Source of the DNA: an uncultured Clostridia bacterium
Lineage (GTDB): Bacteria > Bacillota > Clostridia > Christensenellales > DTU072
NCBI GenBank assembly: GCA_934274515.1
Contig: CAKQTC010000001.1
Coordinates: 141,491 to 205,490 of the forward strand
Length of the DNA stretch: 64,000 nucleotides
Direction: 5' to 3'
Positions 10,901 to 55,100 of this stretch are shown piece after piece (the first letter of the stretch is position 1; every line of letters starts with the position of its first letter). A model generated the notes under the pieces. It did no database searches and was not told the origin of the DNA. It saw nothing but the letters and a program-made list of their open reading frames with translations. Position numbers and translations under genes: made by a program.

Positions 10901-13900
10901 GTAACGGGGCAACGTATCCACTTCGCGGTATAGGTCGTATCGGTTATTCCGAGCGTAAACGTAAACGTTTCTTCCCCCTTCGCTCCGACAAGTTGTTCTC
11001 CGTTATACCACCCGACAAACGTATATCCCGGGTTCGTCGTCGCTTTGACGGACAGTTCTTGCCCGACAATCGTCGCGCCGGTTATTTCCGTCGTACTGCC
11101 GGCATACGCGTCGTTCGTTTCAAAAGTAACGGGGAATTTTCTCCATTTCGCGACGTATTCCACGTCGTTCGCCGTCATCTTAAACGTATATGTAAACCTT
11201 AAATCTTCGCTTACCTTATTGTTGCCGAGGAACCAACCGATGAACGTATATCCGTCGTTCGTCTTCGCCTCGATTGTCGTTTCTCTTCCGACGACGGTCG
11301 CTTCCTCGACGCCGCTTATCGTACCCGCGTTTGCGTCGTTTACCGATATAACGGTCTTGCACCGCTGCCATCTCGCTTCGAGCGTAACGTCGGTTTCTCC
11401 GAGCGTAAGCGAATACGCCGTTTCCCCTTCTTTGCTCACCTTTTCGTCGCCGCAGTACCACCCGAGAAACGTATATCCGTCGTGCGTGTACGCGTTTGTT
11501 CTCACCGTTTGTCCGACGTGGTACCTGTCGTTAAGTTGATCCGTAGTTCCGCCGTTATCGTCGTTCGTCACAACCAAAACTTTGCTCCATTTCGCCGTGA
11601 AAGTACGATTTTCTTCCCCCATAACGAACGTGTATTCGAGCGAAACCCCTTCGCTTACTTTGTTTTGCTCTTCGTCAAACCAACCTTGCCAAACGTAGCC
11701 CGAATTCGTCGTCGCTTTTATCGTAACCGTCTGTCCGTAAACATAGGTATCCGTTAATTCGGTGACCGTTCCCGCTTTCTCGTTCGCGCTTACTGCGACG
11801 GTTTTTGACCATTTTGCCTCGTAAATACGATTTTCACTCGGCATCGAGAACGTGAGTTTTTTGTCGCCGGTCACTTTTTTCCCGTCGTTAAACCAACCGA
11901 GAAACGTATATCCGCTGTTCGTCACGGCGGTTACTTCACACTCGTCGCCCGGCAAATATTTACCGTTGAGCGCGCTCGTGCTTCCCGCGTTTTCGTCGTT
12001 AATCGCTATGCTTACTTTTATCCATCTCGCCTCGTACGTCATACTCTGCGCTTCGGTTTTGAATTCCAGAAACGTTTTGTCCGTAACAATCTCGTCCCCC
12101 GAGTACCATCCGATAAACGTATACCCGTCGGCGGTTTCCGCCACCACGGACACGGTATCCCCCTCTCGATATTTACCGTCGAGTTCGGGTACTTTTCCCG
12201 CGTTTTCCGAGTTGGACGCGAGCGTAACTTTACTCCATTTTGCGACAAGCGTTCTGCTCTCGTTCGTCATGGTCACGTTGTAAAGTTCTTCCTTCTCTAT
12301 CTTTTTGTCGTTTTCGTACCAACCGAGCCAAGTGTATCCGACGTTCGTTTCCGCGTAAGCATTGTCTTTTTCGTTGGGTATATACGACTTATCCGACTTT
12401 GAAAAATGAACTTTTCCCGCTTTATCCGTAGCCGCGTCTATTTCTTCTTGCGTCCCCGTCGCGCCGTCAAGTTCTTTGACTAGTTTTACCCTGCTCCATT
12501 TCGCTATAAGCGTGCGATTTTCTTTCGTCATAGCGAATTCGTACGTTTCGAGCGTTCCTTCGCTTACTTTCGTTTCCCCTTCGTACCAACCGAGCCAAGT
12601 GTACCCTGCGGTCGTAAAGACTTTCGCGACAGCCGTTTCATTGACGACAAACGATTTCGCTCCGCTAGACTTGCTTGTTAACGTCGCTTCGCCTGCCGCT
12701 TTCCCTTGCTCTTCCTGTTCGTTTTCGTTGCCAGTCGCCCCGACAAGCACTTGTTTTATACTTACTTTGCTCCATTTTGCAACGTACGTTACGTTTTTTT
12801 CGGGCATAGTAAAAGTATAATCTTTTCGCGTGCCGACGTTTACCTTGTTGTCGCTTATCGATTCATTTCCGTTTACGTCGATAGTAATCGTCCTTTCAAA
12901 CCAACCGATGAAAGTGTATCCTTCGTTTGTATCCGCGGTTATCGTCATTCTGTCCCCGGGAAGATACGTTTCCGGCAAATCGATTATCGTACCCGCGTTT
13001 TCGTCGTTTCTTAAAAGCGTCACGGTAAAAAGTTTCCATTTAGCCGTATACGTTACGTCTTGATCGGTCAACTTTATCGTCAGGTCGGTTTCCGCGCCGT
13101 CGCTTAATCTCTCGTTATCTCTGTACCAACCTACCCATTGATAGTTTTCGTTTGTCGTAGCGGTAATCTTCGTTTCGTCGCCGACAACGTAATCTTTGTC
13201 CAAACCGCCGACGTCGCCTGCCGCGTCAATGTTCTTCGCAAGCGTAACCTTCGCCCATTTTGCAGTATAAACCGCGTCGTGGTCGGGTACGGTAACGGTA
13301 ATTTCATTCGAATTCCCTTCGTTTACTTTAACCCCTTCTTCGTTGTACCATCCGAGCCAAACGAACCCTTTGTTCGATTTCGCGCTCAGTTTTATTTCGT
13401 TGCCGGGGACAAGCGTTTCTTCTCCGACAATCGTTTCCGCCGTGCCTGCGTCGGGTTTGTTCGTCTTTGCTGTGACTTTCGCCCATTTCGCTACATATTC
13501 CGCGTCGCTCGCGCCCACGGTCAATTCGTATTCTTTGTTGTTGTTTACTAGTTCGTCGTTTAAGTCGAACCATCCGAGCCAGGTATAGCCTTTATTGGTA
13601 ACGGCAATAAGTTTCACGGCGGAACCGTACGGGTATAAGCCGCCGCCCGTCACCGATCCTGCCGCATTGTCGCCGGCGGTCGCTTCTATTTCGTAGTCGC
13701 AAAGCGTCCACTCTGCGTAAACGGTCATCATTCCCGCATGCGAATAATTTCCCATGCTCCTGCCGTTTCTGTCGGTAATCTGTTTTTTCACGCCGTCGAT
13801 TATCGCGTACCAGTATTCGAACTCGCTACCCGTCTTGGTCGGCACTTCAAGCGCAAACTCTTCGCCGAAACGTACGCTTGCGAACGGGCGAACGACGACG

Positions 13901-15054
13901 CCGCCGTCGGTAACGTAGTTTATCGTATAAGTTTTAGGTTCGGTGTCGGCATAAAAATCCGCGGCGTAACCGATAATTTGACCGCTTTCGTTTTTAATCT
14001 CTTTGACCGCTTCGATGACGTCGCCGTCTTTGCCGAATACGAACCGCGAGCCGTTTTCGTCGCGCCATGCCGTTATCTCTTTCCCCGATATTTCTATATC
14101 GACGGTAAAATCGTCGGCAAAAGCGGAATACGTGGTATGCTCTTTTTCGCAAATAAGCGTTTCTCCGTCGTAAAAACGCACTTTGACGAGTTGACGCTTA
14201 TGTACGAGAAGTTCATATTCGTACGCTTTTTCTCCGTTAACGTAAGTAACGACGTAGAAGACGTTATTCCCGCTTTTAAGCGCGGCGGAAGAACCGCCAA
14301 CAGTTTTGTCGGGTATTTCCTCGGTTCCTTTTTTGTCGGCAAAAAGTTTCCACGTCGTGTTTTCCCCGTTTAAGCGAACGGTATCGAAAACAATCTTCGT
14401 TTCGTCGGTAACGATTTGTATCACGCCGTTATTTATCGTACCGCCGTTAAAATACTTAACGCCCCCTTTATCGGGTTTCCACTTCGCGTAAAGCGTCGCG
14501 TCGCCTTCGACCGTATACGGAAATTTTATTATTTGCTCGCTTAATGCATCGGTACTCCAACCTGCGAATATATATCCTTTTTTGACGGGAATTTCGGTCG
14601 GTGCGTTTATCTCTCCCCAAATAACGGAGTTCACCGACGGAACGGCAGAACCGCCGAGCGCGTCGAACTCAATCGTGCGCGCGTTAAATTTGACCAACGC
14701 TTCGTCCGTAAGTCTTACTAATGCCCCTCCATCGTTGCCCAAAAGAATTCTATCATCGGAAAAAGTTCCGTTTTGGCTGTCGTTGTTTATCGTGAAAGTA
14801 ACCGTGCCGTCTTTTGCTGAATACGTTCCTTCCTGTTTTTGTCCGTCTTCGGATACGATTGCGAATACGGAGGAACCTAAAATCTCGATATATGCATTGT
14901 CGTGAGCGAATTCCTTACCGTTTTCGTCTGTTTCCACAAAGTAGTACTTGCCGCTTTTCAACCCGTCGAGTCCAAGCCCGTCGCAGGCAAAAAGACAAGC
15001 AAGCAACGTTACCGTCGCTATCGCAAAACACGCTATCTTAAAAAACTTTTTCAT
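4957..15054 (-). CDS. Giant surface lipoprotein (3365 aa): about 36 tandem divergent InlB B-type repeats, a Cys3His mini-repeat module and a DUF6273-like C-terminal domain
   Basis: Single uninterrupted 10,098-nt ORF. Signal peptide with lipobox (TLLACLFAC). About 36 modules of roughly 75-80 aa each contain G[YF]x[FW]xGW[YF] and end in YxAKW. The C-terminus reads YFGSYPQ...EWWTRSP...TGVVPTVKI. SD acggag is upstream. Confidence 0.85.
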   Translation of the reverse strand: MKKFFKIACFAIATVTLLACLFACDGLGLDGLKSGKYYFVETDENGKEFAHDNAYIEILGSSVFAIVSEDGQKQEGTYSAKDGTVTFTINNDSQNGTFSDDRILLGNDGGALVRLTDEALVKFNARTIEFDALGGSAVPSVNSVIWGEINAPTEIPVKKGYIFAGWSTDALSEQIIKFPYTVEGDATLYAKWKPDKGGVKYFNGGTINNGVIQIVTDETKIVFDTVRLNGENTTWKLFADKKGTEEIPDKTVGGSSAALKSGNNVFYVVTYVNGEKAYEYELLVHKRQLVKVRFYDGETLICEKEHTTYSAFADDFTVDIEISGKEITAWRDENGSRFVFGKDGDVIEAVKEIKNESGQIIGYAADFYADTEPKTYTINYVTDGGVVVRPFASVRFGEEFALEVPTKTGSEFEYWYAIIDGVKKQITDRNGRSMGNYSHAGMMTVYAEWTLCDYEIEATAGDNAAGSVTGGGLYPYGSAVKLIAVTNKGYTWLGWFDLNDELVNNNKEYELTVGASDAEYVAKWAKVTAKTNKPDAGTAETIVGEETLVPGNEIKLSAKSNKGFVWLGWYNEEGVKVNEGNSNEITVTVPDHDAVYTAKWAKVTLAKNIDAAGDVGGLDKDYVVGDETKITATTNENYQWVGWYRDNERLSDGAETDLTIKLTDQDVTYTAKWKLFTVTLLRNDENAGTIIDLPETYLPGDRMTITADTNEGYTFIGWFERTITIDVNGNESISDNKVNVGTRKDYTFTMPEKNVTYVAKWSKVSIKQVLVGATGNENEQEEQGKAAGEATLTSKSSGAKSFVVNETAVAKVFTTAGYTWLGWYEGETKVSEGTLETYEFAMTKENRTLIAKWSRVKLVKELDGATGTQEEIDAATDKAGKVHFSKSDKSYIPNEKDNAYAETNVGYTWLGWYENDKKIEKEELYNVTMTNESRTLVAKWSKVTLASNSENAGKVPELDGKYREGDTVSVVAETADGYTFIGWYSGDEIVTDKTFLEFKTEAQSMTYEARWIKVSIAINDENAGSTSALNGKYLPGDECEVTAVTNSGYTFLGWFNDGKKVTGDKKLTFSMPSENRIYEAKWSKTVAVSANEKAGTVTELTDTYVYGQTVTIKATTNSGYVWQGWFDEEQNKVSEGVSLEYTFVMGEENRTFTAKWSKVLVVTNDDNGGTTDQLNDRYHVGQTVRTNAYTHDGYTFLGWYCGDEKVSKEGETAYSLTLGETDVTLEARWQRCKTVISVNDANAGTISGVEEATVVGRETTIEAKTNDGYTFIGWFLGNNKVSEDLRFTYTFKMTANDVEYVAKWRKFPVTFETNDAYAGSTTEITGATIVGQELSVKATTNPGYTFVGWYNGEQLVGAKGEETFTFTLGITDTTYTAKWIRCPVTLEKNIVGAGGVSGTEGATKINSDVTIIANSNPGYVWLGWYENDVKLGIENSFEFDYTFTMTEENRTLTAKWAKIEVVSTNEAAGSVSVEEKAFTPGDDIVVNAQTNDGYTFIGWYIGETNVESATRYVFTAENKEHLDEIKAKWIKVTLNSMLTGDNDTALDATLAGEIGGLDKPFITGEIATITAVTNDGYTFVGWYDNKGKVSADGKSEYSFAMPNKDAEYTAKWIEGTINAEIELDCETAKNKIALAGNVSGAEKSNVVGEKIVLSAETNVGYAFLGWYEKTVEEKEGSEAVINYTKISNDFELFCKIIVTETKRTFVAKFAFIRAESKLFSHTGDKSGTVSGVDATYFPDDEETVVASNAGGFTFLGWYTEPLRDNETSTRVCQELTYTFTVPDKSMAIYARWTERTVDFQAKIDGKIAANFAQYLNVPTGITVAGKNVTISAAPVDGYVWLGWYEDNTLLTKDRNYTFPMPDGENQKTYSARWATKTLSVAVIENGQDKTASPSMGRVTGLENAVSGQDVTLYAETYDNATFTGWYDVNNKLLESGYSYTVRVPEAALTIKAKWIDCPITIGSYNPDAGTTGSLSAYKIGDTVVLSAKTNEGYTFLGWYEGETKVSEGTSMSYSFTLTETKRTIIPRWIICPVTVSVDEKYIEGGNAIGIEDIATTYGEQVTVYASTNDGYTFFGWFLKGADDAPITKELEYTFTLSYTDKYELIAKWKPCTISVKAIPAGAVSVTQQTIVGGKATITAAVNSAYTWVGWLDESGMLVGDRAYSVEVDVPGENTASYTAKWITCPITLSTEGGGGTVMISENTVATKQATITAVSKSGYKFVGWFDKDENLLGARAFSLNVTVPESDSTTYTAKWTKCNVSASAVVFDDGVYSESSCGRVEINGGTVDVDTVTMTAATTENGFVFLKWVNERGEDVSSDYSITVKDEQGKTYRAVWINNPIGITRNVVDAGSTSVVGTIEIGKEITLRAALNEGYVWLGWYKGTEIITEQTDCNVTVTEENVIYTATWCVAMPITVKKNISAAGTVTDTLEQVTKVGDKATIAAETNDGYAFIGWFNATGTMITSEPTYELTVTKDPSTYEARWLARPVIAESSEQAAGVVRVSDITRVGQQATLTAETNDGYTFVGWFKGETLVNAAEECEIIVEETPVVYTAKWIKFPVTINRNDENAGSVVGVPLKTRLNQVVTVTAETNDGYTFVGWFNKNEQVSKKGEYDYTFKITENAETYEARWVNRKFDVTTNDETAGRAILPRGGTVVGGKVTLEAETNDGYVFDGWYLNEKKIAHTVAYEVEVTLDYKVYTAKWVPKTTIALEKNIEQAGEVRASDLKENSINLYATINDGYTFIGWYNGETLISGAPECKYDIPETTTTSGENEPLTLTAKWIVCPVSVIKNVDEAGETNSIVGGTVLGQKITLAATTRKGYAFVGWYANDVLDPNELGKAVREFTITEETVVYEARWMVCPVTVVKSSDEAGDVSGVDGINIGDEITLAATTRKGYTFVGWYNGDKLLAGGGSTMTYVVTRGKKEFIAVWSRTVIVTDNAEGGTVRGMDGTYVVGEETTIVAERKIGYLFDGWFVNGIKQSDQADYVITLTRDDVVYIARFSLCNDHKPDENCICTKCGAECHNMDIYCTCIVCGKTEHDIEDCVCKKCGTTVHEVDENCVCRVCGREVHGSNALGYCMHDDGNDKQKVYFGSYPQTEVKGTELIARLNAKITDVPTASNSGSWTSYKVKSWTTNEQDYMWYNDVVYGNDRYRGVYFTSYRPTSSTKSVSQQQNNGYVTKKIYWFKYELIEWQVLSSNGTLASILSKYVLDSQEYSVNNNNSYMNSSIRAWLNDAFYNRAFGSVQKKNIKVSTVDNSKESAMNEYANVCENTRDNVYLLSRKELNMYAVGSKQYTDYAKIMGIKINYEANAADRLKCEWWTRSPFGGGYDNAAIVKISGLSNSPADVTQSCTGVVPTVKIRLK
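5818..6039 (-). repeat. Coding mini-repeat: four tandem C-x-C-x2-C-G-x3-H units (15-16 aa each)
   Basis: Peptide DENCICTKCGAECHNM / DIYCTCIVCGKTEHDI / EDCVCKKCGTTVHEV / DENCVCRVCGREVHGS lies between the repeat array and the C-terminal domain of the 3365-aa protein. Confidence 0.8.
6046..14682 (-). repeat. Coding tandem array of about 36 divergent InlB B-repeat (Flg_new / Flg_new_2-like) modules
   Basis: By my count there are 36 GW-containing modules (GYTFIGWY, GYVWLGWY, GYTFVGWF and so on). Modules are diverged at the amino-acid level. Only short DNA motifs of about 25 nt, such as gtaccaaccgagccaaacgta, recur nearly identically. Confidence 0.8.
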
Positions 15055-32197: not shown

Positions 32198-32632
32198 TTA
32201 TTTATCGAATACGACGGTAATCGGTCCGTCGCTGTAAATTGAAAGTTCCATGTGTTCGCCGTACATACCGGTACCGACAGGGACGAACTCGCTCATTCTC
32301 CGAACGAACTCGTCGTAAATAGGTTTTGCGTCAAGACGTTTCATCGCCTTAGAAAAATCGGGACGCGTGCCGTGCGAACAATCGGCGTAAAGCGTAAAAT
32401 TGCTTACGATTAAAACTTCGCCTTTTTCGTCAACAACCGAACGATTGAGTTTGCCGTTCTCATCGGGGAAAATACGCATTTTGGAAAGTCTTTCCGCCAT
32501 AAACCGCGCCTTTTCGGGCGTGTCGCCATCGGTAAAACCGCAAAGCACGAGCAATCCGTGGTTCGCACTCCCTACAACCTCTCCGTCAACGTAAACCTTT
32601 CCTTCTCTTATCCTTTGGACAACGCAACGCAT
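32198..32632 (-). CDS. dtd: D-aminoacyl-tRNA deacylase
   Basis: 144 aa. Contains MRCVVQRI, LLVLCGF, VSNFTLYADCSHGTRPDF and a Dtd signature at the C-terminus. Confidence 0.9.
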   Translation of the reverse strand: MRCVVQRIREGKVYVDGEVVGSANHGLLVLCGFTDGDTPEKARFMAERLSKMRIFPDENGKLNRSVVDEKGEVLIVSNFTLYADCSHGTRPDFSKAMKRLDAKPIYDEFVRRMSEFVPVGTGMYGEHMELSIYSDGPITVVFDK

Positions 32633-32710
32633 AAACTCTCCTTCTATCTATCGCAACGCCGCTCTGCATTGCATCTCTTTATCGCCGATAAGCGTATTAT
32701 TAAAATCCAC

Positions 32711-33163
32711 TTATATCTCTTGTTTTATCAAAATTACGGGCGTGTACCGAAATTTTTGCCCTTGTAGGGGGACGACGGGGAAATCTCCCTCGCCAAACTA
32801 TATGATAAGCAAAATGCGTCGTTTTGCTTCCTTGGTAGTCCGACTTACACGGGTTAAACGTTTATACGCACAAAGCAACCGCGACTGCGTTAAACGTCCG
32901 TGTAACGTTTGGTCGGATTTCACATAACGTTTGGTCGGTTCCCCTCATACAGTTTATATCACTCGTTCTCTCAAAAATTACGGGCGTGTACCGAAATTTT
33001 TGCCCTTATAGGGGGACGGCGGGGGAATCTCCCTCGCCAAACTATATGATAAGCAAAATGCGTCATTTTGCTTCCTTGGTAGTCCGACTTATGCGGATTA
33101 AAAATTTATCCGCGCGTCGAGTTCTCTCGACCGCGAGTAAATTTCCGCATAACGTTTGGTCGG
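32711..33163. repeat. Tandem duplication (244-bp period) of a structured non-coding element
   Basis: The 114-nt core at 32734-32847 matches 32978-33091 with 4 mismatches. Each copy is followed by a long hairpin with an unrelated interior and a covarying 8-bp stem (32845-52/32898-905 versus 33089-96/33145-52), then cgtttggtcgg. See findings. Confidence 0.9.
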
Positions 33164-33178
33164 CTCTTCGCATAACGT

Positions 33179-34510
33179 TTACTTCCCCACGCAAAAACGC
33201 GAGAATACCTCGTCTATTATGCTGTCCGATACGCTATTCCCCGTTATTTTCCCTAATGCGTCCAACGCGCCTCTTACGCTTTCAAGCGTACATTCCGTCG
33301 GCAAGACGTCGTACCCGGACAAAGCGTCTTTTATAAGCCTGTCCGCCTCTTCCAGCGCGAAAATATGCCGTTCGTTGCTGATTACGCCTTCCTTGTATAT
33401 TCCTTCTCTGTCCGCTTGTTTTAAGACGTACGAGATAAGTTCTTCAAGTCCTTCGCCTGTCTTTGCAGAAATCGCAAGCGCGTGTTCTCGCGGATATTTT
33501 ATTTTGTCGGTTTTGTTCTGCACGGTAATATACTTTTTGTCTTCGAGTTTTTCCCGTATCTTTCTTTCGTCGTCACTTACGGGCACGGTTCCGTCCGTAA
33601 CGAAAATAACGACGTCCGCCGCGTCTATCGCCCTTACCGAGCGCTCTATTCCTATTTTTTCGACCTTGCCCGCTCCGGCGTTTCTTATCCCTGCCGTATC
33701 CAGAAAGTTAATCTTTATCCCGTCTATCTCGACGCTTTCTTTCACCACGTCGCGAGTAGTCCCTTCTTCATCGCTGACTATCGCTCTGTCTTGACCGATA
33801 AGCGCATTAAGCAATGAACTCTTTCCTGCGTTAGGGGTTCCCACAATGGCGATATCGATACCCTCATTAAGCACTTTACGTCTAGAAGAGTTTGCGAGCA
33901 ACTTATCGCAGTTACGCTTGGTTTTTTCAAGTAATTCTTTTGCCGGGGCGCGCGTTTCTTCTTCGAGTTCTTCGGGATAATCGAGTTTTGCTTCGAGCAT
34001 AGCGGCGGTTTCCGTGAGCATTTTTTCGCTTTCCGTGATACCTTGCGTCAATTCTCCGCTCATTAGCCTATACGCGTTTTTTACCTGACTTTCGGTCGTA
34101 GCGTTTATCATATCGATTACGCCTTCCGCCTCGGACAAAGACAGTTTTCCGTTAAGGAACGCGCGTTTGGTAAACTCGCCCGGTTCTGCAGGTCTTGCGC
34201 CCATAGAGCGCACCAAATGGACTATCGCGCCCGTTACGCCCCTGCCGCCGTGACAGTGTATTTCTATTACGTCTTCGCCCGTATAAGAAAACGGCGATTT
34301 GTAATACACACAAAACGCCTTTTCGGAAAAATTTTTCCCTTCTATTCTGCCGAGATACATATAATTCGGAGTCATTTGTCCGTCGGATATTTTTCGGCAG
34401 AAAAATATTTTTCGCGCTATCGCCGCGGCGTCTTCTCCGCTTATACGGATAATGTTTATACCCGCGCTCGACGTCATTGCCGTAGCGACAGCCACAATCG
34501 TATCTTTCAT
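33179..34510 (-). CDS. mnmE: tRNA modification GTPase MnmE
   Basis: 443 aa. G-domain motifs GTPNAGKSS and DTAG, and the C-terminal CVGK tetrapeptide. Confidence 0.95.
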   Translation of the reverse strand: MKDTIVAVATAMTSSAGINIIRISGEDAAAIARKIFFCRKISDGQMTPNYMYLGRIEGKNFSEKAFCVYYKSPFSYTGEDVIEIHCHGGRGVTGAIVHLVRSMGARPAEPGEFTKRAFLNGKLSLSEAEGVIDMINATTESQVKNAYRLMSGELTQGITESEKMLTETAAMLEAKLDYPEELEEETRAPAKELLEKTKRNCDKLLANSSRRKVLNEGIDIAIVGTPNAGKSSLLNALIGQDRAIVSDEEGTTRDVVKESVEIDGIKINFLDTAGIRNAGAGKVEKIGIERSVRAIDAADVVIFVTDGTVPVSDDERKIREKLEDKKYITVQNKTDKIKYPREHALAISAKTGEGLEELISYVLKQADREGIYKEGVISNERHIFALEEADRLIKDALSGYDVLPTECTLESVRGALDALGKITGNSVSDSIIDEVFSRFCVGK

Positions 34511-37341: not shown

Positions 37342-37803
37342 TCAAATTATCTCGGCAATCGTCGCTCCGCTCGCTCTCAAAAAATCGTCGGTGCTCATCT
37401 CCGCTTGCATTCCTTTCCTCCCCGCGCTTACCGTAACCGTATCGAACAACGTCGCCGTGTCGCTGACTATCGTAGTAAACTTTTTCTTCATTCCTATCGG
37501 CGAACAACCGCCGTGAACGTACCCGGTCAACGGGAAAAGTTCTTTTTGCTTTATCATTTCGACGCGTTTCACTTGCGCCGCTTTCGCCGCCTTTTTTAAG
37601 TCCAAAGAAAAACATACGGGGACGACGAATACGTAATGATTGCCGTCGTTTCCTACCGTAACGAGCGTCTTCATCGTCCTGTCCGGGTCGCTCCCCGTCG
37701 CTTTCGCAACGCTTTCCCCGTCCGTTATTTCGGGGTCGTATTCTCGTACGACGTATTTTATACCCTCGGCGTCGAGTATTCTAAGCGCGTTCGTTTTGTC
37801 CAT
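37342..37803 (-). CDS. ybaK: Cys-tRNA(Pro)/Cys-tRNA(Cys) deacylase YbaK/EbsC
   Basis: 153 aa. Contains ALRILDAEGIKY...KTLV...GYVHGGCSPIG, the hallmark of the YbaK editing domain. Confidence 0.85.
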   Translation of the reverse strand: MDKTNALRILDAEGIKYVVREYDPEITDGESVAKATGSDPDRTMKTLVTVGNDGNHYVFVVPVCFSLDLKKAAKAAQVKRVEMIKQKELFPLTGYVHGGCSPIGMKKKFTTIVSDTATLFDTVTVSAGRKGMQAEMSTDDFLRASGATIAEII

Positions 37804-37812
37804 ATCCCGTTC

Positions 37813-38157
37813 TCACAATTTCTTAATCAAATGCGTTATCGTCCCGTTCTCGAACTGCTCCAAAACCGTTCCCGACGCGTACTTCTCGCTATCAACGATA
37901 CTCTTAATCAGCGCAAACACGACGTCGCGCTCCGCTTCGCCGCGCTCCGCGCCTTTCTTGCTCGCCGCGGCGATTTCTTCGTCGCTTAAACAAACGTTTT
38001 GCACCCTGCGCATAAACTCCTTTACGCAAGGCGTATACTTTACCTCACTCCTGCCGTCGATATCTTCCCTGACCCCGTACCTGTCGTGCATAAGCACGGG
38101 CAAAAGCGCCTTGATTTTATCGTATTCCCTTCCTTCGTCTATCCTTTCTTTCGCCAT
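37813..38157 (-). CDS. Hypothetical protein
   Basis: Start taken at MAKERIDEG (ATG 38157, AAAGGAG 10 nt upstream). The ORF track's version begins 22 codons earlier at 38223. No motif recognised. Confidence 0.45.
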   Translation of the reverse strand: MAKERIDEGREYDKIKALLPVLMHDRYGVREDIDGRSEVKYTPCVKEFMRRVQNVCLSDEEIAAASKKGAERGEAERDVVFALIKSIVDSEKYASGTVLEQFENGTITHLIKKL

Positions 38158-38499
38158 ATCATCGCTACTCCTTTCCTCGTCCATTATACACCGTTTCGGC
38201 AACTCTGCGCAACGATTATTCATTTTTCGCTTTGATTTCGTAAAACTCGTTTTTTTCGTACGCCGCTTGTTTGCGTCGGGGACGGGCGGGCGGGATTTTA
38301 TCGGACAAAAATCATTAATATAACAGTATATGCGTTCGTTCGGGTATCCTTATTTTCTAAAAAGGTTTCCCTTTATCGGCAATTTCTTTTTACTGGAAAG
38401 TTTTTTCGCTTTTTTAGAAAAAAATCGGTTGCGGTGTTTACATTCCCGAACAAATGTTGTATCATATTTATTAAAGTATTCTTAATTAAGAGGTGTTTG

Positions 38500-39252
38500 A
38501 TGAACGTTCCTAAAAGTTATCCGATTATTTACGTTCTCGGCGGATTAATTTGCGTCGCCATCATCACGATGAGCGTTTTTTACATAATTAAAAACGTCAA
38601 ACGTGCGAAAAAAATCGGTATGGACATGTCTAAAATTAAAAAAACAATCGTTTCGAGCGCGGTGTTCTCCATAGTTCCGAGTATTCCTATTGTAATCGGC
38701 ATAGGTATTATGATGTCGGGACTCGGCGTAGCCATTCCGTGGATACGACTTACCGTTATCGGCGCGCTTCAATACGAACTCGTCGCTTACGACCAAGCAA
38801 ACAAAGCCCTTGCCGGCACCGGTGCAACCACCGAAACCATCATCGCGACGGCAGTTACCGTTATGACGCTTTCCATTATGAGCGGTCCGTTGTTCAACGC
38901 CATCGTTTATAAAAAGTATCAAAACAAACTCGCGGATTTACAAAAGAAAAACGCTCGTCTTATGAATACCGTCACCGGCGCGCTTTTGGGCGGTCTTTTG
39001 GCGGGTATGCTTTCGGCAATTCTCGTAGGCGGTTGTTTCAGTATCGGACACCCTGTCGAGGAACCTTCCACGAAAATCACAACTTACGGCGAAATAACTC
39101 TTATCACCCTTGCGGCAAGCCTTGTCATCATGGGTATCTGCGGCGTAATAATCAAACTAGGTAAGCAAAAATGGTTGGAAAACTACGCTCTTCCTATTAC
39201 CATTCTCGGCGCGCTCGGCATTGCTTTCGCTTTCACGAAAGTATTTTGTTAA
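38500..39252 (+). CDS. Integral membrane protein, unknown function (possibly DUF5058-like; unsure)
   Basis: 250 aa from ATG 38500 (SD aagaggtg) with about 6 hydrophobic helices. The family name is from weak memory only. Confidence 0.5.
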   Translation: MNVPKSYPIIYVLGGLICVAIITMSVFYIIKNVKRAKKIGMDMSKIKKTIVSSAVFSIVPSIPIVIGIGIMMSGLGVAIPWIRLTVIGALQYELVAYDQANKALAGTGATTETIIATAVTVMTLSIMSGPLFNAIVYKKYQNKLADLQKKNARLMNTVTGALLGGLLAGMLSAILVGGCFSIGHPVEEPSTKITTYGEITLITLAASLVIMGICGVIIKLGKQKWLENYALPITILGALGIAFAFTKVFC

Positions 39253-39266
39253 AAGGAGATACGATA

Positions 39267-39971
39267 ATGAAAAACAAACAACCGGTTCAACTTTCCGACA
39301 GAGATATTTTTAACAACAAAATGCACACGGTAGGCAGGATATTTACCTGGATTGCGCTAGGTTTGATATGTCTTGTTCCCGTGTTCTACTGCGTATCGGC
39401 AAAAACTCTTCCCGACGCCAAAGCACTCGGCAAATGCGTACCGTTCCTTTTGGGATACGTCGCGATAGGACTTATCGAAGCGGTAAGTTACGCCCCGTTG
39501 CTCGGCACCGGCGGGCAGTATATGTCTTTCATAACGGGCAACGTAAGCAACCTTAAACTTCCCTGCGCCATAAACGCTCAAAGCATTACCGGCGTCGAAA
39601 AAGGCAGCGAAGAAGAAGAAATCGTCACTTCTATCTCGATTGCGGTAAGCAGTATCGTCACGACTCTCGTCATTGCGATAGGACTTATTCCGCTTATTAT
39701 TTTCCAAAACCAAATAGTCGATATACTCGCTCCGGTTTCCCCGTACGTAATTCCCGCTATCTTCGGCGGACTGACCTTGGTTCTTATCGCGCAATACTTC
39801 AAAATAGCGATTATTCCCTTTATCGGTTGCATACTCATCTGTGTTGCAGGCACCCTTATCGGCAACAAACTCGGCAAACCAAACCTTATGAGTCAATCGA
39901 CGATGGTCGTCGTAGGCATGGCTGTAAGCGGTATAAGCACGACGATTCTGTACAAGAAGAATAAAATATAA
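39267..39971 (+). CDS. Integral membrane protein, unknown function
   Basis: 234 aa from ATG 39267 (SD aaggag), starting 15 nt after the previous gene. It has about 6 helices. Probably a two-subunit membrane complex or transporter together with 38500-39252. Confidence 0.5.
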   Translation: MKNKQPVQLSDRDIFNNKMHTVGRIFTWIALGLICLVPVFYCVSAKTLPDAKALGKCVPFLLGYVAIGLIEAVSYAPLLGTGGQYMSFITGNVSNLKLPCAINAQSITGVEKGSEEEEIVTSISIAVSSIVTTLVIAIGLIPLIIFQNQIVDILAPVSPYVIPAIFGGLTLVLIAQYFKIAIIPFIGCILICVAGTLIGNKLGKPNLMSQSTMVVVGMAVSGISTTILYKKNKI

Positions 39972-40133
39972 CGAAAAACGGCGCGATTACAATATTTTAC
40001 AACAAGTGCGTTTGCGAAAACTCTTGCAAAAAACTCGCGCGCGTAATATAATTAAAATACAATGAGTTTATAAAGGCGCGTTGCGCCGAAAGTTTAACAC
40101 CATCGGTAAGAACCGATACTTCGGGAGGAAGTA

Positions 40134-41516
40134 ATGGCGGTAAGAGCAAACAACGTCAACAATGCGCGCAAAGCGCGTATGTGGAGCGAGCAGGACGACG
40201 CTAATCTCGTTATCCTGCTCAGACGCAAAATTAAAGACACGACGGTGGCTATTCGCGAGAGCGAAACTCCGTACGAAAGGTCTCGCCTAAAAGCGCAAAG
40301 AGCGCGTTATAAAGAAATGCTCCGTAAAGTCGAAACCGGCAACTACAACGGGGATATTATTTTTAACGAACTTCGCGCGGCGGCGGCGCTCAGGCAGGAA
40401 TCGGAATTCGCGTCCGGACTGCATACGTCGATGGCAGGCGGCAAAGCGTACACCAATTCTTACGGCAACGTCGATTTCGACTACGAAGCCGCTTTTCGCA
40501 AAAAACGTTATTACGGCGCGTCTTTGCCGATAATTCTTACGTTGCTTTCCATTATTCTCCTTGCTTCTATGCTACTCGGCATACTCTCGCCTCACTACAT
40601 CAACCGTACGATTACGAATAAAATAACCGACGGCACGCAAGGCATGATTAACATAAACACTATGTTCGTCTATAAAATCGATTCCGTCGTTCCGGGTACG
40701 AATTCCCTTACGATTAACGGCGTAACCCTTTTGCAGGGCGACATCAAGGTTCAAGCAGACGAAAACGGCAAATGGTGGTGGCCCGAAGCAAACTATCCGA
40801 GCGAGTACGTAATCGAACAAGGAAAACCCTACGCCACAATTGACTCCGAAGGAAAAGTAAAAGAAAGCGGAGCGGAAAGCGTTCTTCTTAAACGAGATTT
40901 AGGCGTAACCGCCATTTACATAGACGCGGCGGACGTTATCAAAGCATGGTTCCACACCAAAATGCTTGAAAAGACGCGTATAGACGTACTCGAAAATCTC
41001 TCCGTATTCCAAGGAACGAGCGCGTTCTATTCTATCTTCCTTGCCGACGGAAAAGCGTCGCAACTCGTCATTAAAAAAGAAAACGGTCAATACAACCGTG
41101 AAACGATAATTAACCATCTCGGCGTATACGGCGCGATTTTATACAACATTGTAGCCATCGTCTTTATGGTTATCATCTTGATACAAAACATCGTACGCAT
41201 ATTTACGTACACTTCGAGAAGACTGCACTTTACGACGTTTTTGTGCTTGCTGTTTAGCGCGCTCGGCTGGATATCCCCCGCTCTCGCTACCTGCGAAGGC
41301 ACGGAACTCGGCGTAGCGTTCAAAAACTATTTCCTCAATCTCACAAATGCGGAAGCATTTATGTCGGAAGCAACCGCGTCGGTAGGCGTTACTATTATGG
41401 GAATTATCCCGGTTGCAATTTGTTTCGTTATGCTCATACTGCCGAAGTTCTTCCGCAACAGGCATAAAGATTTGCCCGCACGCGTCCCGAAAGGAAACAG
41501 AAAAGCACACGTTTAA
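40134..41516 (+). CDS. Hypothetical membrane protein (basic cytoplasmic N-domain, extracytoplasmic domain of about 180 aa, 3 C-terminal TM helices)
   Basis: 460-aa ORF with SD gggagg. Predicted TM segments lie at about aa 130-155, 337-360, 372-392 and 425-447. No motif recognised. Confidence 0.55.
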   Translation: MAVRANNVNNARKARMWSEQDDANLVILLRRKIKDTTVAIRESETPYERSRLKAQRARYKEMLRKVETGNYNGDIIFNELRAAAALRQESEFASGLHTSMAGGKAYTNSYGNVDFDYEAAFRKKRYYGASLPIILTLLSIILLASMLLGILSPHYINRTITNKITDGTQGMININTMFVYKIDSVVPGTNSLTINGVTLLQGDIKVQADENGKWWWPEANYPSEYVIEQGKPYATIDSEGKVKESGAESVLLKRDLGVTAIYIDAADVIKAWFHTKMLEKTRIDVLENLSVFQGTSAFYSIFLADGKASQLVIKKENGQYNRETIINHLGVYGAILYNIVAIVFMVIILIQNIVRIFTYTSRRLHFTTFLCLLFSALGWISPALATCEGTELGVAFKNYFLNLTNAEAFMSEATASVGVTIMGIIPVAICFVMLILPKFFRNRHKDLPARVPKGNRKAHV

Positions 41517-48951: not shown

Positions 48952-48966
48952 ACGAAAAACGCTTAC

Positions 48967-49000
48967 AAAACGGCGGAACGCGACGTTCTGCCGTTTTTTT
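48967..49000 (+). terminator. galE terminator
   Basis: aaaacggcggaacg-cga-cgttctgccgttttttt (one G-U pair). Confidence 0.7.
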
Positions 49001-49127
49001 AGCCGCTTTTTTTAGCCGCTTTTTCGTAAAAAACGATATTACTTATTTTTACGCAAAAATAACGTTGCCGAAATTGATTTTCGGTTTTTTTTGATGTATC
49101 ATATACTGCGAATACGAAAGGAAAAAA

Positions 49128-52134: not shown

Positions 52135-55100
52135 TTACGCCCACCTATGGTGTCTTCTTCTGCTTCTCATTCTTTCTTTTTTCGCTTTGTTTCCGCCGCC
52201 GAACACTATTCCGAGCGCAATGAGAATAATGATTACGAAAATTCCGACGCATATCCAAATAACGACGGGCGAAGTCTTTATTACTTTTTCTTTCGCGAAC
52301 ACAAAATCTTCGAGTTTGGTCGCTTTCGTTTTATATACGCCGTTTTCGTAAGTAAACTTTAACTCGCCGTACCCGTTTTCTCCGTATCCGAACAGTTTCA
52401 AATCGTCCGAAAACTTGAATTCTTTGGTTTTTAACCTTATCTCGTACGTCGGATATTCCGCTCTGTATTCCGCGCCGTCAAGATATATCTGCACGTCGAA
52501 CGAAGATATTATTTCGTATCGTTTCCCCTCGTTTTTATTTTCGAGATTTTGTTTAAGCGTCGTTTTCTTTTCTTCGGTAGCCGCTTTGTACACCAAATAC
52601 AGTTCCGGCAGAACCCCGTACGGACAATCGTTTTCGTCAAACGTGACGCCGACTACGTTCCCGGTAAGACTGCTGCTTTCTATCGTAAGCGTTCCTATCG
52701 TGAGCGTCGCTAGAAGTTCGAGCGTATTATAGTTTTTCGCGCTTACCGTCGCCTTAAATACATACGTTCCCTTGTCAACGAAATAATCTTTGTCGTAAAC
52801 TACGGTTACGTTCGGCCATTTCGTTTTGTCGTATGCGACTTCTATCGTGTGCCTTTCTCCGTCGTACAACACCTTTTTATCGCTAAACGAAAACCCTTCG
52901 AGCGTATCCGGGTGAACGGTATAAACGCTGTCCCCGTACGATATGGCAAAGTTTTTCGTATCGCCGTTATAGATTATGCTTATCGGATAATCGCCTGCGT
53001 CCGACGTCCTGTCTACGTTTACGCTCGCTTTCGTCGCCGCTTTGATTATCTCGGTTATTTCTTCGAGGTCCTCTCTCGAAAACTCCGACGCGTTCGCTCC
53101 TAACGACACGGCGACGGTTATTTCGCCTTGGTTCTCGGCTCCGTAAATTTGCCCGAAACTTACGGCATAAACGGTTATTTCCGCCGGTAAAACTTCGACG
53201 TAACCTTGAACGAACTCGAATTCGTAACACCGATTAAGTTCTTCTAATTCGTTTTTTCCGCCATCCTTGACATACGGTTCTATCGCGTATTCGCCTACCG
53301 TCGTGCGTTTTGCGGCAACCGACCTTACCTTCAAACAATTTCTTAACAGCAAGTCGTCCCCGTCAAGTATTTTACCGTCGATTTTTATCGCGGATACGAG
53401 CGTTTCGTCCTTTTCTTCGTCCGCATAATAGTATTTTTGTTTAATCGGCGCAACTACGCGAATTTTGCTCTTCACTATTTCTAATTGCGCGCTGTTTTCA
53501 AACGTGATTTCGTATTCGAACTCTTCGTCGTCGGCAACGATTTCGTAATATTCTTTGTTCCCTGCCGCCGCGGTGCCGTCCGCGTACACGGTGTATATCC
53601 CGGGGAATAATTTTCTTACGTCGATACGCTCTCTCGTCGTTTCTTCGCCTACGGTAACCTTAAACAACTCGACTCTTCCGTCGAATTTTTTTAGTTCAGC
53701 AATAGGTAACGTATAATCCGTACCCGAAATTTTTATTCGTTTTATCAATTTCGTAAAATCAACCGTTTCGGAATACGGGGAAACGACCGTGTTGCCGAGC
53801 GTCAACGTTACTCCAGCCTTGATTGCGGTAAACTCTACGGAAACTTGTTTTTCTCCGTAAAATTCTTTACCGCGGACGTAATACGTTTCGCTTTCGTCGA
53901 AAAACGCGCCGATTTCCACGGGTTTATATCCGCTTTCGTCTTTAATGAAATATCCGTCGGACGAAACCTTAATCTCGTTACACTCGCTTACTTCCAGCGT
54001 ATAGTATTTTTTGTCGGTTGCGGCGGTCGTATCCGACGTCGCGACAAACTCGTTTTCGATTTTTTCGTAACAGTTTTCGGGCAACTCGTCGCCTACGCTT
54101 ACCGCTACGGACGTATCGATGACGCGGTAATACTCTTTATTTTTCGCGTATTTTACGTCGGTGGTTTTTACATAACCGTTCACCGTTTTTTCATATACGT
54201 CGCCGTCGATTATGTAGTTTATCCGTTTTTCGAGATACCCTTTTGTTGCAGAAAACAGGTAGTCGTACGAATTTGTTCCGCTCGTAAGCGTTTCGTTTTC
54301 GTCTTGCGGTCGGAACGAGCCGACGATGGGGTTTCCGTTATAAACGAACTTAACGTCGTCCGCCACGGCGGTCGTCGGCAACGGGTCTCCGGCAATAAGC
54401 GTAACTCCTCCGCTCGCGGTAGCCGTCAACGATATTTTCTTTGCCTCGACTTTTATTTCCACGCTTTCGGCGTCTTTATAATACGAATTCCCTTTCGCTT
54501 TTACGATTACGGAAAACTCGCCTGCGGTTTTCGCTACGAACACGCCGTCCGATTTTTGCTCCGCGGCGGCGGTCCCTTCAATCACTTCGTAAACGAGTTT
54601 AACACCGGTCCCCGTCCCGTCCGAGGTTACGCTCGTCGCGCCGAGAGAAAACTCGCCGTTGACCGGCACCACTATCGACGTCGTTAGATTTGCGTTAAAA
54701 TCGTCGAATACGACGAACTGTTCCGTTTGGCTTTCGGTATCGACGACAAACAGCGGTATAACGACGGGGTCGAGTTTATAATTGCCGTCCACGCACTCCG
54801 CGCGCACGAAATACTCGCCCGTTTCGGTTATTCTCGACGGCAACGCTTTGGTTTCGTCGCCTTCTTTCGCGTCGCTCGCCGTTCTATACGCTTTCATCGA
54901 CAAAATCCCCGTTTTCGCTCCGGTTATTTCGGGATCGGGCAACGATTCTCCGCGGTATACTCTTATTTGCTTTGTCGTCACTTCTATCGGTTTCGGCTCG
55001 ATTGCGCCGTTCGCCGTCATTCGCTCGATAACGTAATTCGAAAAAACGGTTTCCGTTTCGGCGTCACGCCCGAGAAGTTTCGCATTGAAAACGGTTATCT

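Follow-up and report, generated by a model that had tools for sequence, protein, structure and literature searches.

Two copies of a dispersed, structured mosaic repeat occupy the mnmE–dtd gap of an uncultured Christensenellales bacterium

Bacterial interspersed mosaic elements (BIMEs) of the Enterobacteriaceae are composed of REP units, and the BOX element of pneumococci consists of boxA, a variable number of boxB modules and boxC. The organization of REPs and their dimers has been surveyed, and none was reported there in Firmicutes (PMC3733652). REPINs are mobilised by RAYT transposases (PMC3116915, PMC3337134), while the pneumococcal BOX, RUP and SPRITE elements were reviewed together and treated as MITEs (PMC10969869). 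Here, we describe a repeat from a Firmicute host, found between mnmE and dtd in a 64-kb stretch of DNA (hereafter the window) of an uncultured Christensenellales bacterium. A literature search for Christensenella repeats or MITEs returned nothing relevant and no account of the repeat content of Christensenellales. The family is an undescribed interspersed repeat, comparable to the BIME, BOX or REPIN elements.

The flanking genes and the elements located in the gap are the following:

33179–34510, minus strand: ORF of MnmE (Pfam TrmE_N, MnmE_helical and MMR_HSR1).
33179–33181, minus strand: stop codon of mnmE.
33169–33180, minus strand: 12-nt fragment of the repeat 5′-end over the mnmE stop, AAACGTTATGCG, read from the sequence.
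32970–33164, minus strand: repeat copy 2, adjoining mnmE, running 5′ to 3′ from GCCGACCAAACGTT to the end of hairpin 4.
33083–33164, minus strand: hairpin 1 of copy 2, defined by DNA fold and pair counts.
33051–33073, minus strand: hairpin 2 of copy 2, AAGCAAAAUGACGCAUUUUGCUU, defined by inverted repeats; counterpart in copy 1 at 32807–32829.
33018–33038, minus strand: G+C-rich hairpin 3 of copy 2, GGCGAGGGAGAUUCCCCCGCC, defined by folds; counterpart in copy 1 at about 32774–32794.
33002–33015, minus strand: mini-hairpin CCCCCUAUAAGGGC of copy 2, directly after hairpin 3; in copy 1 at 32758–32771.
32972–33002, minus strand: hairpin 4 of copy 2, A-run/stem/T-run, CAAAAAUUUCGG-uacacgc-CCGUAAUUUUUG, defined by inverted repeats; counterpart in copy 1 at 32729–32758.
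32954–32976, minus strand: 3′ tail common to both window copies, TTTTGAGAGAACGAGTGATATAA, a direct repeat of 83% identity; counterpart of copy 1 at 32711–32733.
32921–32938, minus strand: lone fragment of the repeat 5′-end between the copies, CCGACCAAACGTTATGTG, read from the sequence.
32729–32917, minus strand: repeat copy 1, adjoining dtd, defined by nhmmer, covariance model and core comparison.
32839–32917, minus strand: hairpin 1 of copy 1, defined by DNA fold and alignment, with the architecture of copy 2 and the interior of another subfamily.
32198–32632, minus strand: ORF of the D-Tyr-tRNA deacylase (dtd).

The gap extends over 546 nt (32633–33178) and contains a head-to-tail duplication with a period of 244 nt, as the first-pass annotation had stated; both the coordinates and a direct repeat of 93% identity (32730–32869 versus 32974–33113) confirmed this. 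Recounting of the 114-nt cores (32734–32847 and 32978–33091) gave exactly the four mismatches claimed (32764, 32775, 32781 and 32821), and position 32821 is indeed inside the loop of the AAGCAAAA/TTTTGCTT hairpin. The other descriptive statements also proved right: the interiors of the long hairpins are unlike in the two copies, their closing stems read ttaCAcgg/ccgTGtaa and ttaTGcgg/ccgCAtaa, tccgac/gtcgga pairing extends the stems, and the motif TAACGTTT occurs four times (32903, 32925, 33150 and 33173), the first three running on into GGTCGG and the last overlapping the mnmE stop. A consensus scan revealed no promoter in the gap, and the sole terminator-like site it returned falls inside mnmE; the TGATATAAA and GATATAAG boxes 3′ of hairpin 4 lack a usable −35 element. 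The repeat breaks short-read assemblies at precisely this gap, as several Logan contigs stop at the mnmE stop codon.

The unit, taken on the mnmE strand, measures approximately 200 nt, has a sharp start at (T)CCGACCAnnCGT and carries four hairpins, that is, hairpin 1 of about 80 nt (79–82 nt), the short hairpin 2, the G+C-rich hairpin 3 with the mini-hairpin, and the A-run/T-run hairpin 4. Copy 2, whose hairpin 1 belongs to the ‘ATGCGG / AAATTTACTCGCGGTCGAGA’ subfamily, was matched by nhmmer at 33165–32970 (E=5.8e-56) and by the covariance model at 33002–33164 (161.9 bits), while copy 1, with a hairpin 1 of the ‘ACACGG / (G/A)CGTTT(G/A)ACGCAGTC’ subfamily, was matched at 32918–32729 (E=5.6e-53) and 32758–32917 (139.6 bits), respectively. 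These are the only two copies detected in the window by the covariance model with filters off; its next match (48953–49036, 17 bits) was rejected as an ordinary terminator. Hairpins 2–4 share 96% identity between the two copies. Both copies were folded on both strands, as had been proposed, and gave much better structures than shuffled sequences (z from −2.7 to −7.6). Folded as DNA, hairpin 1 reaches −25.6 kcal/mol (z=−5.8) in copy 2 and −21.0 kcal/mol in copy 1, and in either copy both strands give equal energies. Hairpin 1 is built from a near-invariant 6-bp base, TCCGAC/GTCGGA, a one-sided 6-nt bulge, CAnnCG, a 9-bp covarying stem, an internal loop and a variable apex. The bulge dinucleotide preceding CGTT varies among copies (AA, GT, CA, AT, GG, GA, CT). 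Hairpin 4 has a terminator-like shape and its sequence type differs across the family; in the commonest type, AAAAAGTGAAAA..TTTTCACTTTTTG, an A/T-rich stem is combined with an A-run and a T-run. The window variants of hairpin 4 were not flagged by a simple terminator consensus scan and the type-B variants of the family have no T-run.

The exchanged closing stems had been taken for a double compensatory change, that is, for stepwise covariation at the mnmE–dtd site. This was not borne out, as two pre-existing hairpin-1 subfamilies stand here side by side. Hairpin modules reassort between copies, and every hairpin-1 subfamily occurs with two different hairpin-2 types; therefore, the swapped hairpin with its ‘compensatory’ stems in the window is a product of module reassortment. 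From cores that differ at just 4 of 114 positions, one could suspect a recent and neutral tandem duplication of local intergenic DNA, but the hairpin-1 interiors come from different family-wide subfamilies and the unit is found in other genomes and at other loci, a distribution that refutes this explanation and leaves it with practically no probability. Comparable lone 5′ fragments precede copies in loci L017, L026, L032, L046, L053 and L060.

Scanning of genome contigs with the hairpin-2 pattern gave 53 stretches, 46 of them in three MAGs of related gut Christensenellales, while nhmmer and the covariance model returned 99 and 88 matches, respectively, on both strands. The copy numbers, which are lower bounds obtained on MAG fragments, were at least 58 in CAYQKV01, at least 21 in CAJLYQ01 and 2 in JBJETX01, and the copies are spread over many contigs. 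They occur in both orientations as single units, head-to-tail arrays (periods of 176, 203, 213 and 244–250 nt) and tail-to-tail dimers; the latter, 494–514 bp long, were found at five loci and their outer ends are inverted hairpin 1 copies. The copies are always intergenic and flanked by housekeeping genes (Pfam search on 148 flanking ORFs, as judged from the 25 commonest families), and the unit has no conserved reading frame, its length varying continuously between 159 and 171 nt. Thus, the copies are many, dispersed, intergenic and non-coding, as generic interspersed extragenic repeats are. In metagenome contigs, the hairpin-1 pattern hit 33 stretches, of which only nine were real, all from sample ERZ779888, and the distribution of the family looks narrow. 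This sample is the source of the CAJLYQ MAG. A phage or plasmid origin was considered and rejected, as neither a pattern scan of viral contigs nor distant blastn against phage and plasmid collections gave anything.

The mnmE–dtd site itself is variably occupied. It is empty in L007 and L098/L100, the spacers of these relatives being 18–25 nt long without the repeat, and the same 18-nt spacing was seen in L101, there in gene calls only. One or more copies are present in L097, where the contig ends, one copy with other modules in L005, and three direct copies and one inverted copy in L009; the inverted one, which is the nearest to dtd, abuts its start codon. When the relatives are ordered by MnmE identity, lineages with a filled and with an empty site are intermingled. 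In the close relative CAJLYQ, many of whose genes show approximately 95% amino-acid identity, copies are present at sites that lack them in the window. Copies are retained at orthologous sites across species in L040/L063 and L034/L044. Comparison of the synteny of the window with the CAJLYQ, CAYQKV and JBJETX loci revealed differences in presence or absence of the repeat, but yielded no filled/empty allele pair with alignable flanks, these being too diverged or rearranged.

To what extent the hairpins are constrained was seen from 87 distinct copies of several genomes, in which 96% of the cells were paired and 34 of the 48 pairs had changed on both sides. None of 500 shuffles reached these values, and slid controls were only 33–46% paired. 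Hairpin 2 kept 10/10 pairs across the family (99.4% of cells paired, six pairs changed on both sides), and in helix 6, which forms the hairpin 3 region together with helix 7, all seven pairs had changed on both sides. The base of hairpin 1 never covaries, which suggests that it is recognised in a sequence-specific manner. Consequently, the original argument for selection on a fold rather than neutral duplication stood as far as the hairpins are concerned, while its picture of an RNA specific to this locus did not. The pairing is almost purely Watson–Crick (3815 Watson–Crick, 52 G·U and 47 A·C of 4023 cells), and since G·U and A·C are about equally frequent, it is strand-symmetric and no RNA strand is indicated. 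An apparent RNA-strand asymmetry (147 G·U versus 32 A·C by RNAalifold) was discarded because it rested on doubtful pairs and was gone with the curated structure and model-based alignment. The scarcity of G·U could merely reflect young copies and few subfamily-level events, and is no proof of DNA-level selection. Searching the whole window against Rfam 15 at gathering thresholds gave no match, in agreement with the earlier impression of no likeness to known RNA families; at E≤10, the region gave only two partial 11–12-bit matches to DUF3800-XI (gathering score 37.8), none of the copies at 14 related loci was matched, and ARAGORN found neither tRNA nor tmRNA.

The copies are positioned unevenly with respect to genes. 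The hairpin-1 end usually lies 0–15 nt past a stop codon, and 23 of the 35 array-leading copies with a co-directional upstream ORF start within this distance of its stop, while no convergent gene is nearer than 91 nt to the 3′-end of the unit. The gene 5′ of the copy points in the same direction in 44 cases and is divergent in 25; of the arrays located between two co-directional genes, 14 lie in sense and 5 in antisense orientation (the orientation and stop-distance statistics are based on ORFs from a crude caller). The 5′ flanks of the copies are unrelated and contain no conserved promoter.

These data weigh strongly against a cis-regulatory RNA of this locus, such as a tandem riboswitch, an attenuator or a leader, acting on dtd–gyrB–gyrA or on the 3′-end of mnmE. 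Tandem arrangement is known for some riboswitches, and the unit folds well and sits between co-directional genes, but a riboswitch or leader would keep a constant orientation upstream of a coherent gene set, and the unit adjoins dozens of unrelated housekeeping genes in both orientations. Its complete absence from the short mnmE–dtd spacers of relatives, the inverted copy next to dtd in L009 and the lack of an Rfam match further reduce this reading to a very improbable one.

A functional RNA module transcribed by read-through from the gene upstream, be it a structured 3′-UTR cassette or a small RNA in many copies, is a more serious, if still rather unlikely, candidate for the primary nature of the unit. 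Hairpin 1 would then lie inside the footprint of the terminating ribosome, hairpin 4 would be a terminator, and the multiplicity would reflect recruitment at many genes. The short distance from stop codons, the distance kept from convergent stops, the excess of co-directional copies and sense arrays, the A-run/stem/T-run form of the commonest hairpin 4 and the strong conservation of helices with many pairs changed on both sides agree with this. On the other hand, the 25 copies facing a divergent gene have no upstream gene to transcribe them and no conserved 5′ promoter of their own, G·U is as rare as A·C, unlike in typical structured RNAs, some hairpin-4 variants have no T-run, Rfam gave no match, and a copy is inverted at the dtd start codon in L009. 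Nevertheless, an RNA-level role accounts for the closeness to stop codons and for the sense bias no less well than a DNA element does. As the base of hairpin 1 is 0–15 nt past the stop, it is within reach of a ribosome standing on the stop codon, and a mobile 3′-UTR RNA module that acts through the terminating ribosome and spreads as DNA can be imagined, although we regard it as a long shot. If this were true, upstream translation would remodel the four-hairpin fold and could thereby, for example, be tied to termination, to decay of the mRNA or to the rescue of ribosomes. More speculative still is a scaffold of the guide-RNA type without an ORF (omega-RNA-like), in which the 5′ flank would serve as a variable guide.

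The ends of the unit were inspected for traces of mobilisation. Single units have unlike ends, 5′ CCGACCAnnCGT (CCGACCA...) and 3′ ...CACTTTTTG (...CTTTTTG) or other variants, and they have no TIRs; inverted ends occur only in the tail-to-tail dimers. No direct repeats flank single units or dimers, and no target-site duplication (TSD) was thus detected, filled and empty alleles with alignable flanks not being among the loci compared. In the 12 positions preceding CCGACC, no motif is conserved except T at −1; several chance loci were included in this table, but inspection of the true copies gave the same picture. The bulge dinucleotide does not match the flank. No transposase or recurrent mobility gene was found among the 148 flanking ORFs (25 commonest Pfam families), and no multicopy protein among 830 ORFs compared all-against-all at loci covering part of each MAG; phmmer with an IS608 TnpA query detected no Y1 transposase-like ORF in the loci examined. 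A high-copy dispersed MITE/REP with TIRs and TSDs had been named beforehand as one of the outcomes that would refute a folded RNA: high copy number and dispersal turned out to be true, while TIRs and TSDs were not found.

Hence, a classical MITE, derived by deletion from an insertion sequence and moved by cut-and-paste via TIRs with formation of TSDs, appears quite improbable. The unit is small, non-coding, multicopy and intergenic, and the approximately 510-bp tail-to-tail dimer with its inverted hairpin 1 ends at five loci could be the true element, but the unlike ends of single units, the lack of direct repeats beside units and dimers, the failure to find a related transposase near any copy and the commonness of head-to-tail arrays are contrary to this. 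The lack of TIRs and TSDs is compatible with a family of recombination sites folded as single-stranded DNA, either attC-like, Xer/dif-like, or Y1-cut ends of IS200/IS605 or REP type. Hairpin 1, with its invariant base, one-sided bulge, covarying stem and variable apex, fits such a site, the way the lone 5′-end fragments break off after CCGACCAnnC(G) suggests that breakage there is preferred, and the head CGT(T/C) before an A/T-starting stem loosely recalls CGTC-tagged REPs (PMC3733652). The parallel with integron attC sites is that the folded strand carries a conserved base and extrahelical or bulged bases and varies in its terminal structure, that it follows a stop codon immediately, and that it is the structure which is conserved, not the sequence. 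However, the AAC/GTT triplets of the attC R box are not conserved and the bulge dinucleotide varies, the copies are scattered in both orientations among housekeeping genes without a cassette array or integrase context, the conserved 4–5-nt target or cleavage motif that IS200/IS605 and the PATEs derived from it would need beside the end is missing, hairpin 1 is two to four times as long as a REP and is followed by three more conserved hairpins, and the IS608 TnpA query had no match in the loci examined; we therefore consider this explanation improbable as well.

Considering all these results, we concluded that two head-to-tail units of a mosaic, non-coding and lineage-specific interspersed repeat make up the array in the gap, and that the unit is probably a selfish DNA element whose hairpins would be passive when transcribed. 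From the anatomy and distribution that were observed, we infer both a mechanism and its consequence for transcription. The unit would be a non-autonomous element, copied and rearranged via a folded single-stranded or cruciform DNA intermediate, and an enzyme encoded elsewhere in the genome would recognise the invariant base and bulge of hairpin 1, although the unit may instead have spread by recombination alone. Local unequal recombination or gene conversion would build and homogenise the arrays. Most copies sit right behind a stop codon in sense orientation, where on read-through the hairpins would probably form a passive 3′-UTR structure with stabilising or terminating effect, and the copies would be no dedicated regulators of dtd–gyrBA.

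Among the described systems, BIMEs resemble this repeat by description, a sequence relationship not being expected: both are extragenic and multicopy, lie behind genes, combine palindromic units with other short motifs into mosaics arranged in alternating or tandem arrays, and hold their structure by Watson–Crick complementarity. In contrast to REPs of 20–40 nt, the Christensenellales unit has about 200 nt and four distinct hairpins, it is without the GTAG head, and its head-to-tail arrays are common, whereas those of REPs are rare (PMC3733652). The GTAG or CGTC tag on a 20–40-nt palindrome, by which REPs and REPINs are defined (PMC3733652), is not present; the hairpin 1 head CGT(T/C) lies inside the 6-nt bulge and reads CGTC in only one subfamily. 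The likeness to REPINs lies in the long hairpin formed from two inverted halves and a variable spacer, the non-autonomous nature without TIRs or TSDs, the subfamilies within a genome and the persistence at orthologous sites across species; however, no RAYT was found in the loci examined, the tag is not strict, and hairpin 1 is merely the first of four conserved modules. With BOX, RUP and SPRITE it shares the Firmicute host, the modular build and the clustering, with insertion beside or into each other; those elements can influence neighbouring transcripts, as this unit may, and SPRITE resembles a Rho-independent terminator (PMC10969869), which hairpin 4 recalls in shape. The sequences are unrelated, though, MITEs are defined by the TIRs that this unit lacks, and its sharp stop-codon polarity is not a described feature of those elements.

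For annotation, these results mean that the mnmE–dtd gap should be entered as repeat DNA instead of a candidate riboregulator of dtd–gyrBA. The human gut microbiota includes Christensenellales as prominent and heritable members, and this large mosaic family could serve as a marker for strain typing. The family also offers a tractable case for studying how such repeats spread in Firmicutes, where the survey reported no REP/RAYT system (PMC3733652), and whether a structured repeat immediately behind a stop codon has an effect on the termination of translation or the fate of the mRNA.

Around the element the genes lie on the minus strand in the order rnpA, yidD, yidC, jag, mnmE, a 546-nt gap, dtd, gyrB, and gyrA, and the gap harbours two units of a hairpin-rich mosaic repeat that is non-coding, dispersed, and present in many copies. 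Gene coordinates confirmed the gap length, and a repeat search recovered the tandem duplication described in the first-pass annotation as a direct repeat (32730–32869 vs. 32974–33113) with 244-nt spacing and 93% identity and with four mismatches (32764, 32775, 32781, and 32821) between the 114-nt cores. The TAACGTTT motif was found four times (32903, 32925, 33150, and 33173), the occurrence at 33173 overlapping the mnmE stop. Both copies fold, on either strand, into structures far more stable than shuffled sequence. Every detail of the earlier sequence observation proved correct, while its interpretation stood only in part: the hairpins are real, but the reading of the stem differences as compensatory change at this locus did not hold.

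Features of the mnmE–dtd region of the window
34510..33179, minus strand, mnmE
33169–33180, solitary 5′-end fragment of the repeat, overlapping the mnmE stop
32921–32938, solitary 5′-end fragment of the repeat
32632..32198, minus strand, dtd

Such solitary fragments, broken after CCGACCAnnC(G), stand ahead of several copies; two of the fragments are in the window. Neither blastn, nhmmer, nor the covariance model with filters off found further copies in the 64-kb window; the model scored the two at 161.9 and 139.6 bits, and its next match (17 bits, 48953–49036), a plain terminator, was rejected as a third copy. Rfam 15 gave no match in the whole window at gathering thresholds, only two fragments of 11–12 bits at E ≤ 10, and none on any repeat copy in 14 related loci, which agrees with the annotated dissimilarity to known RNA families. 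No tRNA or tmRNA genes were found. The minus strand of the window also carries two very long ORFs, 4957–15054 (3365 aa) and 52135–57261 (1708 aa). At 37600–40130 lies the rpmH/rnpA…mnmE order (minus strand), with a 460-aa plus-strand ORF at 40134, which we take to be possibly dnaA; this arrangement suggests a replication origin a few kb from the repeat array.

The hairpin-2 pattern GAAGCNNAAYGWCRCATTNNGCTT was scanned across 185,579 species genomes and matched 53 stretches, 46 of which lay in three Christensenellales MAGs (CAYQKV01, CAJLYQ01, and JBJETX01); the remaining ones (proteobacteria, Corynebacterium, and similar taxa) were chance matches. An nhmmer profile gave 99 matches, and a covariance model built from 65 copies gave 88 at E ≤ 1e-6. 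For CAYQKV01 and CAJLYQ01 this sets lower bounds of 58 and 21 copies, respectively; JBJETX01 has 2. Copies occupy both strands as single units, head-to-tail arrays (periods of 176, 203, 213, and 244–250 nt), and tail-to-tail dimers (494–514 bp, in five loci). Since viral contigs, phage records, and plasmids yielded no copy, and a metagenome-contig scan with the hairpin-1 pattern returned genuine copies solely from the source sample of CAJLYQ01, the family appears lineage-restricted. CAJLYQ01, closely related to the window organism (approximately 95% amino-acid identity in many genes), carries copies at gene ends that are unoccupied in the window. Orthologous gene ends from different MAG species have identically placed copies in two pairs of loci (L040 and L063, L034 and L044). 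The copies of L040 and L063 belong to different hairpin-1 subfamilies, pointing to replacement in place, gene conversion, or insertion that recurred at one position.

With the window minus strand taken as forward, the 5′ boundary of the unit is sharp at (T)CCGACCAnnCGT, upstream of which the flanks are unrelated. Unit length varies continuously from 159 to 171 nt, optional extra repeat modules may follow hairpin 4, and no reading frame is conserved across units.

Successive modules of the repeat unit, from the 5′ end
Hairpin 1, 79–82 nt: nearly invariant 6-bp base TCCGAC/GTCGGA, one-sided 6-nt bulge CAnnCG, 9-bp stem, internal loop, variable apex
Hairpin 2, 10 bp
Hairpin 3, G+C-rich, then a mini-hairpin CCCC(U)AUAAGGGC
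Hairpin 4, at least three sequence types, in two of which an A-run and a T-run flank the stem

Further modules accompany the repeat in relatives. In the Catabacter-like MAG a second module, ...CCTTCCCC(n)GGGGGAAGGTG..GACGGATGAGGGG..., often stands directly ahead of the CCGACC end (L005:3230–3380, L020, L024, L031, and L094); in L005 a 13-bp long-range stem, GTCCCATAAAAAC/GTTTTTATGGGAC, encloses it. This module has no Rfam match and is absent from the window. In the CAYQKV MAG, intergenic DNA is pieced together from several repeat families; two further modules, AAGTTTCTCCCCTCTCGCGCTCTTCCCTTACAAAAA in both orientations and TTGACCTAAAAC..GTCAACCCACCCGCCCGCCCGATAGAGTGGG, lie beside repeat ends (L016, L025, L026, L033, L036, L037, L039, and L046), and neither occurs in the window. 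Two riboswitches in related loci, lysine (L026:5491–5667, 101.8 bits) and AdoCbl-II (L025:4974–5049, 41 bits), are unrelated to the repeat.

The helices are real. When a structure written by hand was laid over a MAFFT alignment, 96.0% of cells were paired (33–46% in slid controls), 24 pairs showed changes on both sides, and none of 500 shuffles reached the observed covariation score; for 87 distinct copies aligned with the model, the corresponding figures were 96.1% paired cells and 34 of 48 pairs changed on both sides. Nearly all changes were from one Watson–Crick pair to another. G·U pairs (52) and A·C mismatches (47) were equally rare among 4023 cells, and hairpin 1 folds equally well on both strands as ssDNA, thus no single RNA strand is indicated; an earlier apparent G·U excess was an artefact of doubtful RNAalifold pairs. 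The pattern suits DNA palindromes, although the test is weakened by young paralogous copies. Variation falls into reassorting subfamilies: each hairpin-1 type is combined with two different hairpin-2 types, and in the L009 and window arrays differing hairpin-1 types are joined to near-identical hairpins 2–4. Consequently, the CA/TG and TG/CA stems, read in the first-pass annotation as compensatory, are two family alleles side by side rather than the product of compensatory evolution at mnmE–dtd. A neutral duplication is effectively excluded.

Syntenic contigs from uncultured Clostridia, gathered via MnmE homologues, showed that the mnmE–dtd site is polymorphic.

The mnmE–dtd site in MnmE lineages (MnmE identity to the window in brackets)
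P0002 (91%), L005: one copy and other repeat modules
P0003 (73%), L007: 25-nt spacer without the element
P0004 (72%), L097: copy beginning 3 nt past the stop, then contig end
P0005 (71%; GCA_964418255.1), L009: 1000-nt gap holding four copies, three direct and one inverted, the latter directly against the dtd start
P0006/P0007 (71%), L098, L100, and L101: 18-nt spacer without the element (L101 spacing from gene calls only)

Because the empty P0003 lineage groups by MnmE identity with the filled P0004/P0005 pair, several gains or losses must have occurred here; copies come and go and are rearranged among closely related lineages. A locus-specific riboregulator at mnmE–dtd is effectively excluded. 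The hairpin interior of the inverted L009 copy is nearly identical to that of window copy 2. This copy (L009:5124–5330) stops 8 nt short of the dtd ATG, where GGTCGGA and GG give a Shine–Dalgarno-like GGAGG, so the repeat end may supply the ribosome-binding site of dtd. The mnmE to dtd-gyrB-gyrA order, in place of mnmG-rsmG, is shared by the repeat-free L007. Several Logan contigs stop directly at the mnmE stop, which is what a repeat that interrupts assembly would be expected to cause, and short-read contigs from several samples (L002, L003, L004, L010, and L097) end 45–165 nt past it, L004, L010, and L097 running into repeat modules; assemblies thus break at this repeat-bearing site.

By a simple longest-ORF caller, which makes the figures provisional, the 5′-side gene was co-directional for 44 copies and divergent for 25, and 23 of 35 array-leading co-directional copies started 0–15 nt past the stop codon. 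Database gene calls bore out the short distances at mnmE. Convergent genes on the 3′ side (n = 26) were never closer than 91 nt, and between co-directional genes 14 arrays were sense and 5 antisense. This stop-codon polarity is the best argument for the main rival, a primary role as RNA, which we nevertheless consider rather unlikely because some copies are inverted or face divergent genes and G·U pairs are virtually absent.

Flanking ORFs encode ABC transporters, tRNA synthetases, EF-G, PFOR, and similar proteins; no recurrent mobility family was among their 25 commonest Pfam families, no multicopy protein was found in the related loci, and an IS608 TnpA query had no match there. A MITE or REP had been named beforehand as the reading that would overturn selection on a folded molecule: its high-copy dispersal was found, but single units have no TIRs, and no TSDs flank units or dimers. 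The repeat thus differs from MITEs; it departs from REPs in size and in having no GTAG or CGTC tag, from IS200/IS605 derivatives in having no conserved flanking (5′) target, and from attC sites in having neither AAC/GTT triplets nor a cassette context. Since the defining features of all four are missing, it is filed only as a generic interspersed mosaic extragenic repeat of a new family, of which a literature search found no description. In its working it most resembles BIMEs/REPINs and pneumococcal BOX/SPRITE clusters (PMC3733652, PMC3116915, PMC3337134, PMC10969869).

We favor a non-autonomous selfish DNA element, whose invariant hairpin-1 base and bulge would be recognised in the folded strand by a trans-acting enzyme. 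Arrays would be made and homogenised by unequal recombination and gene conversion, and transcribed units may act as 3′-UTR structure. The stop-codon-facing polarity and the reassortment of modules are the features worth following up.
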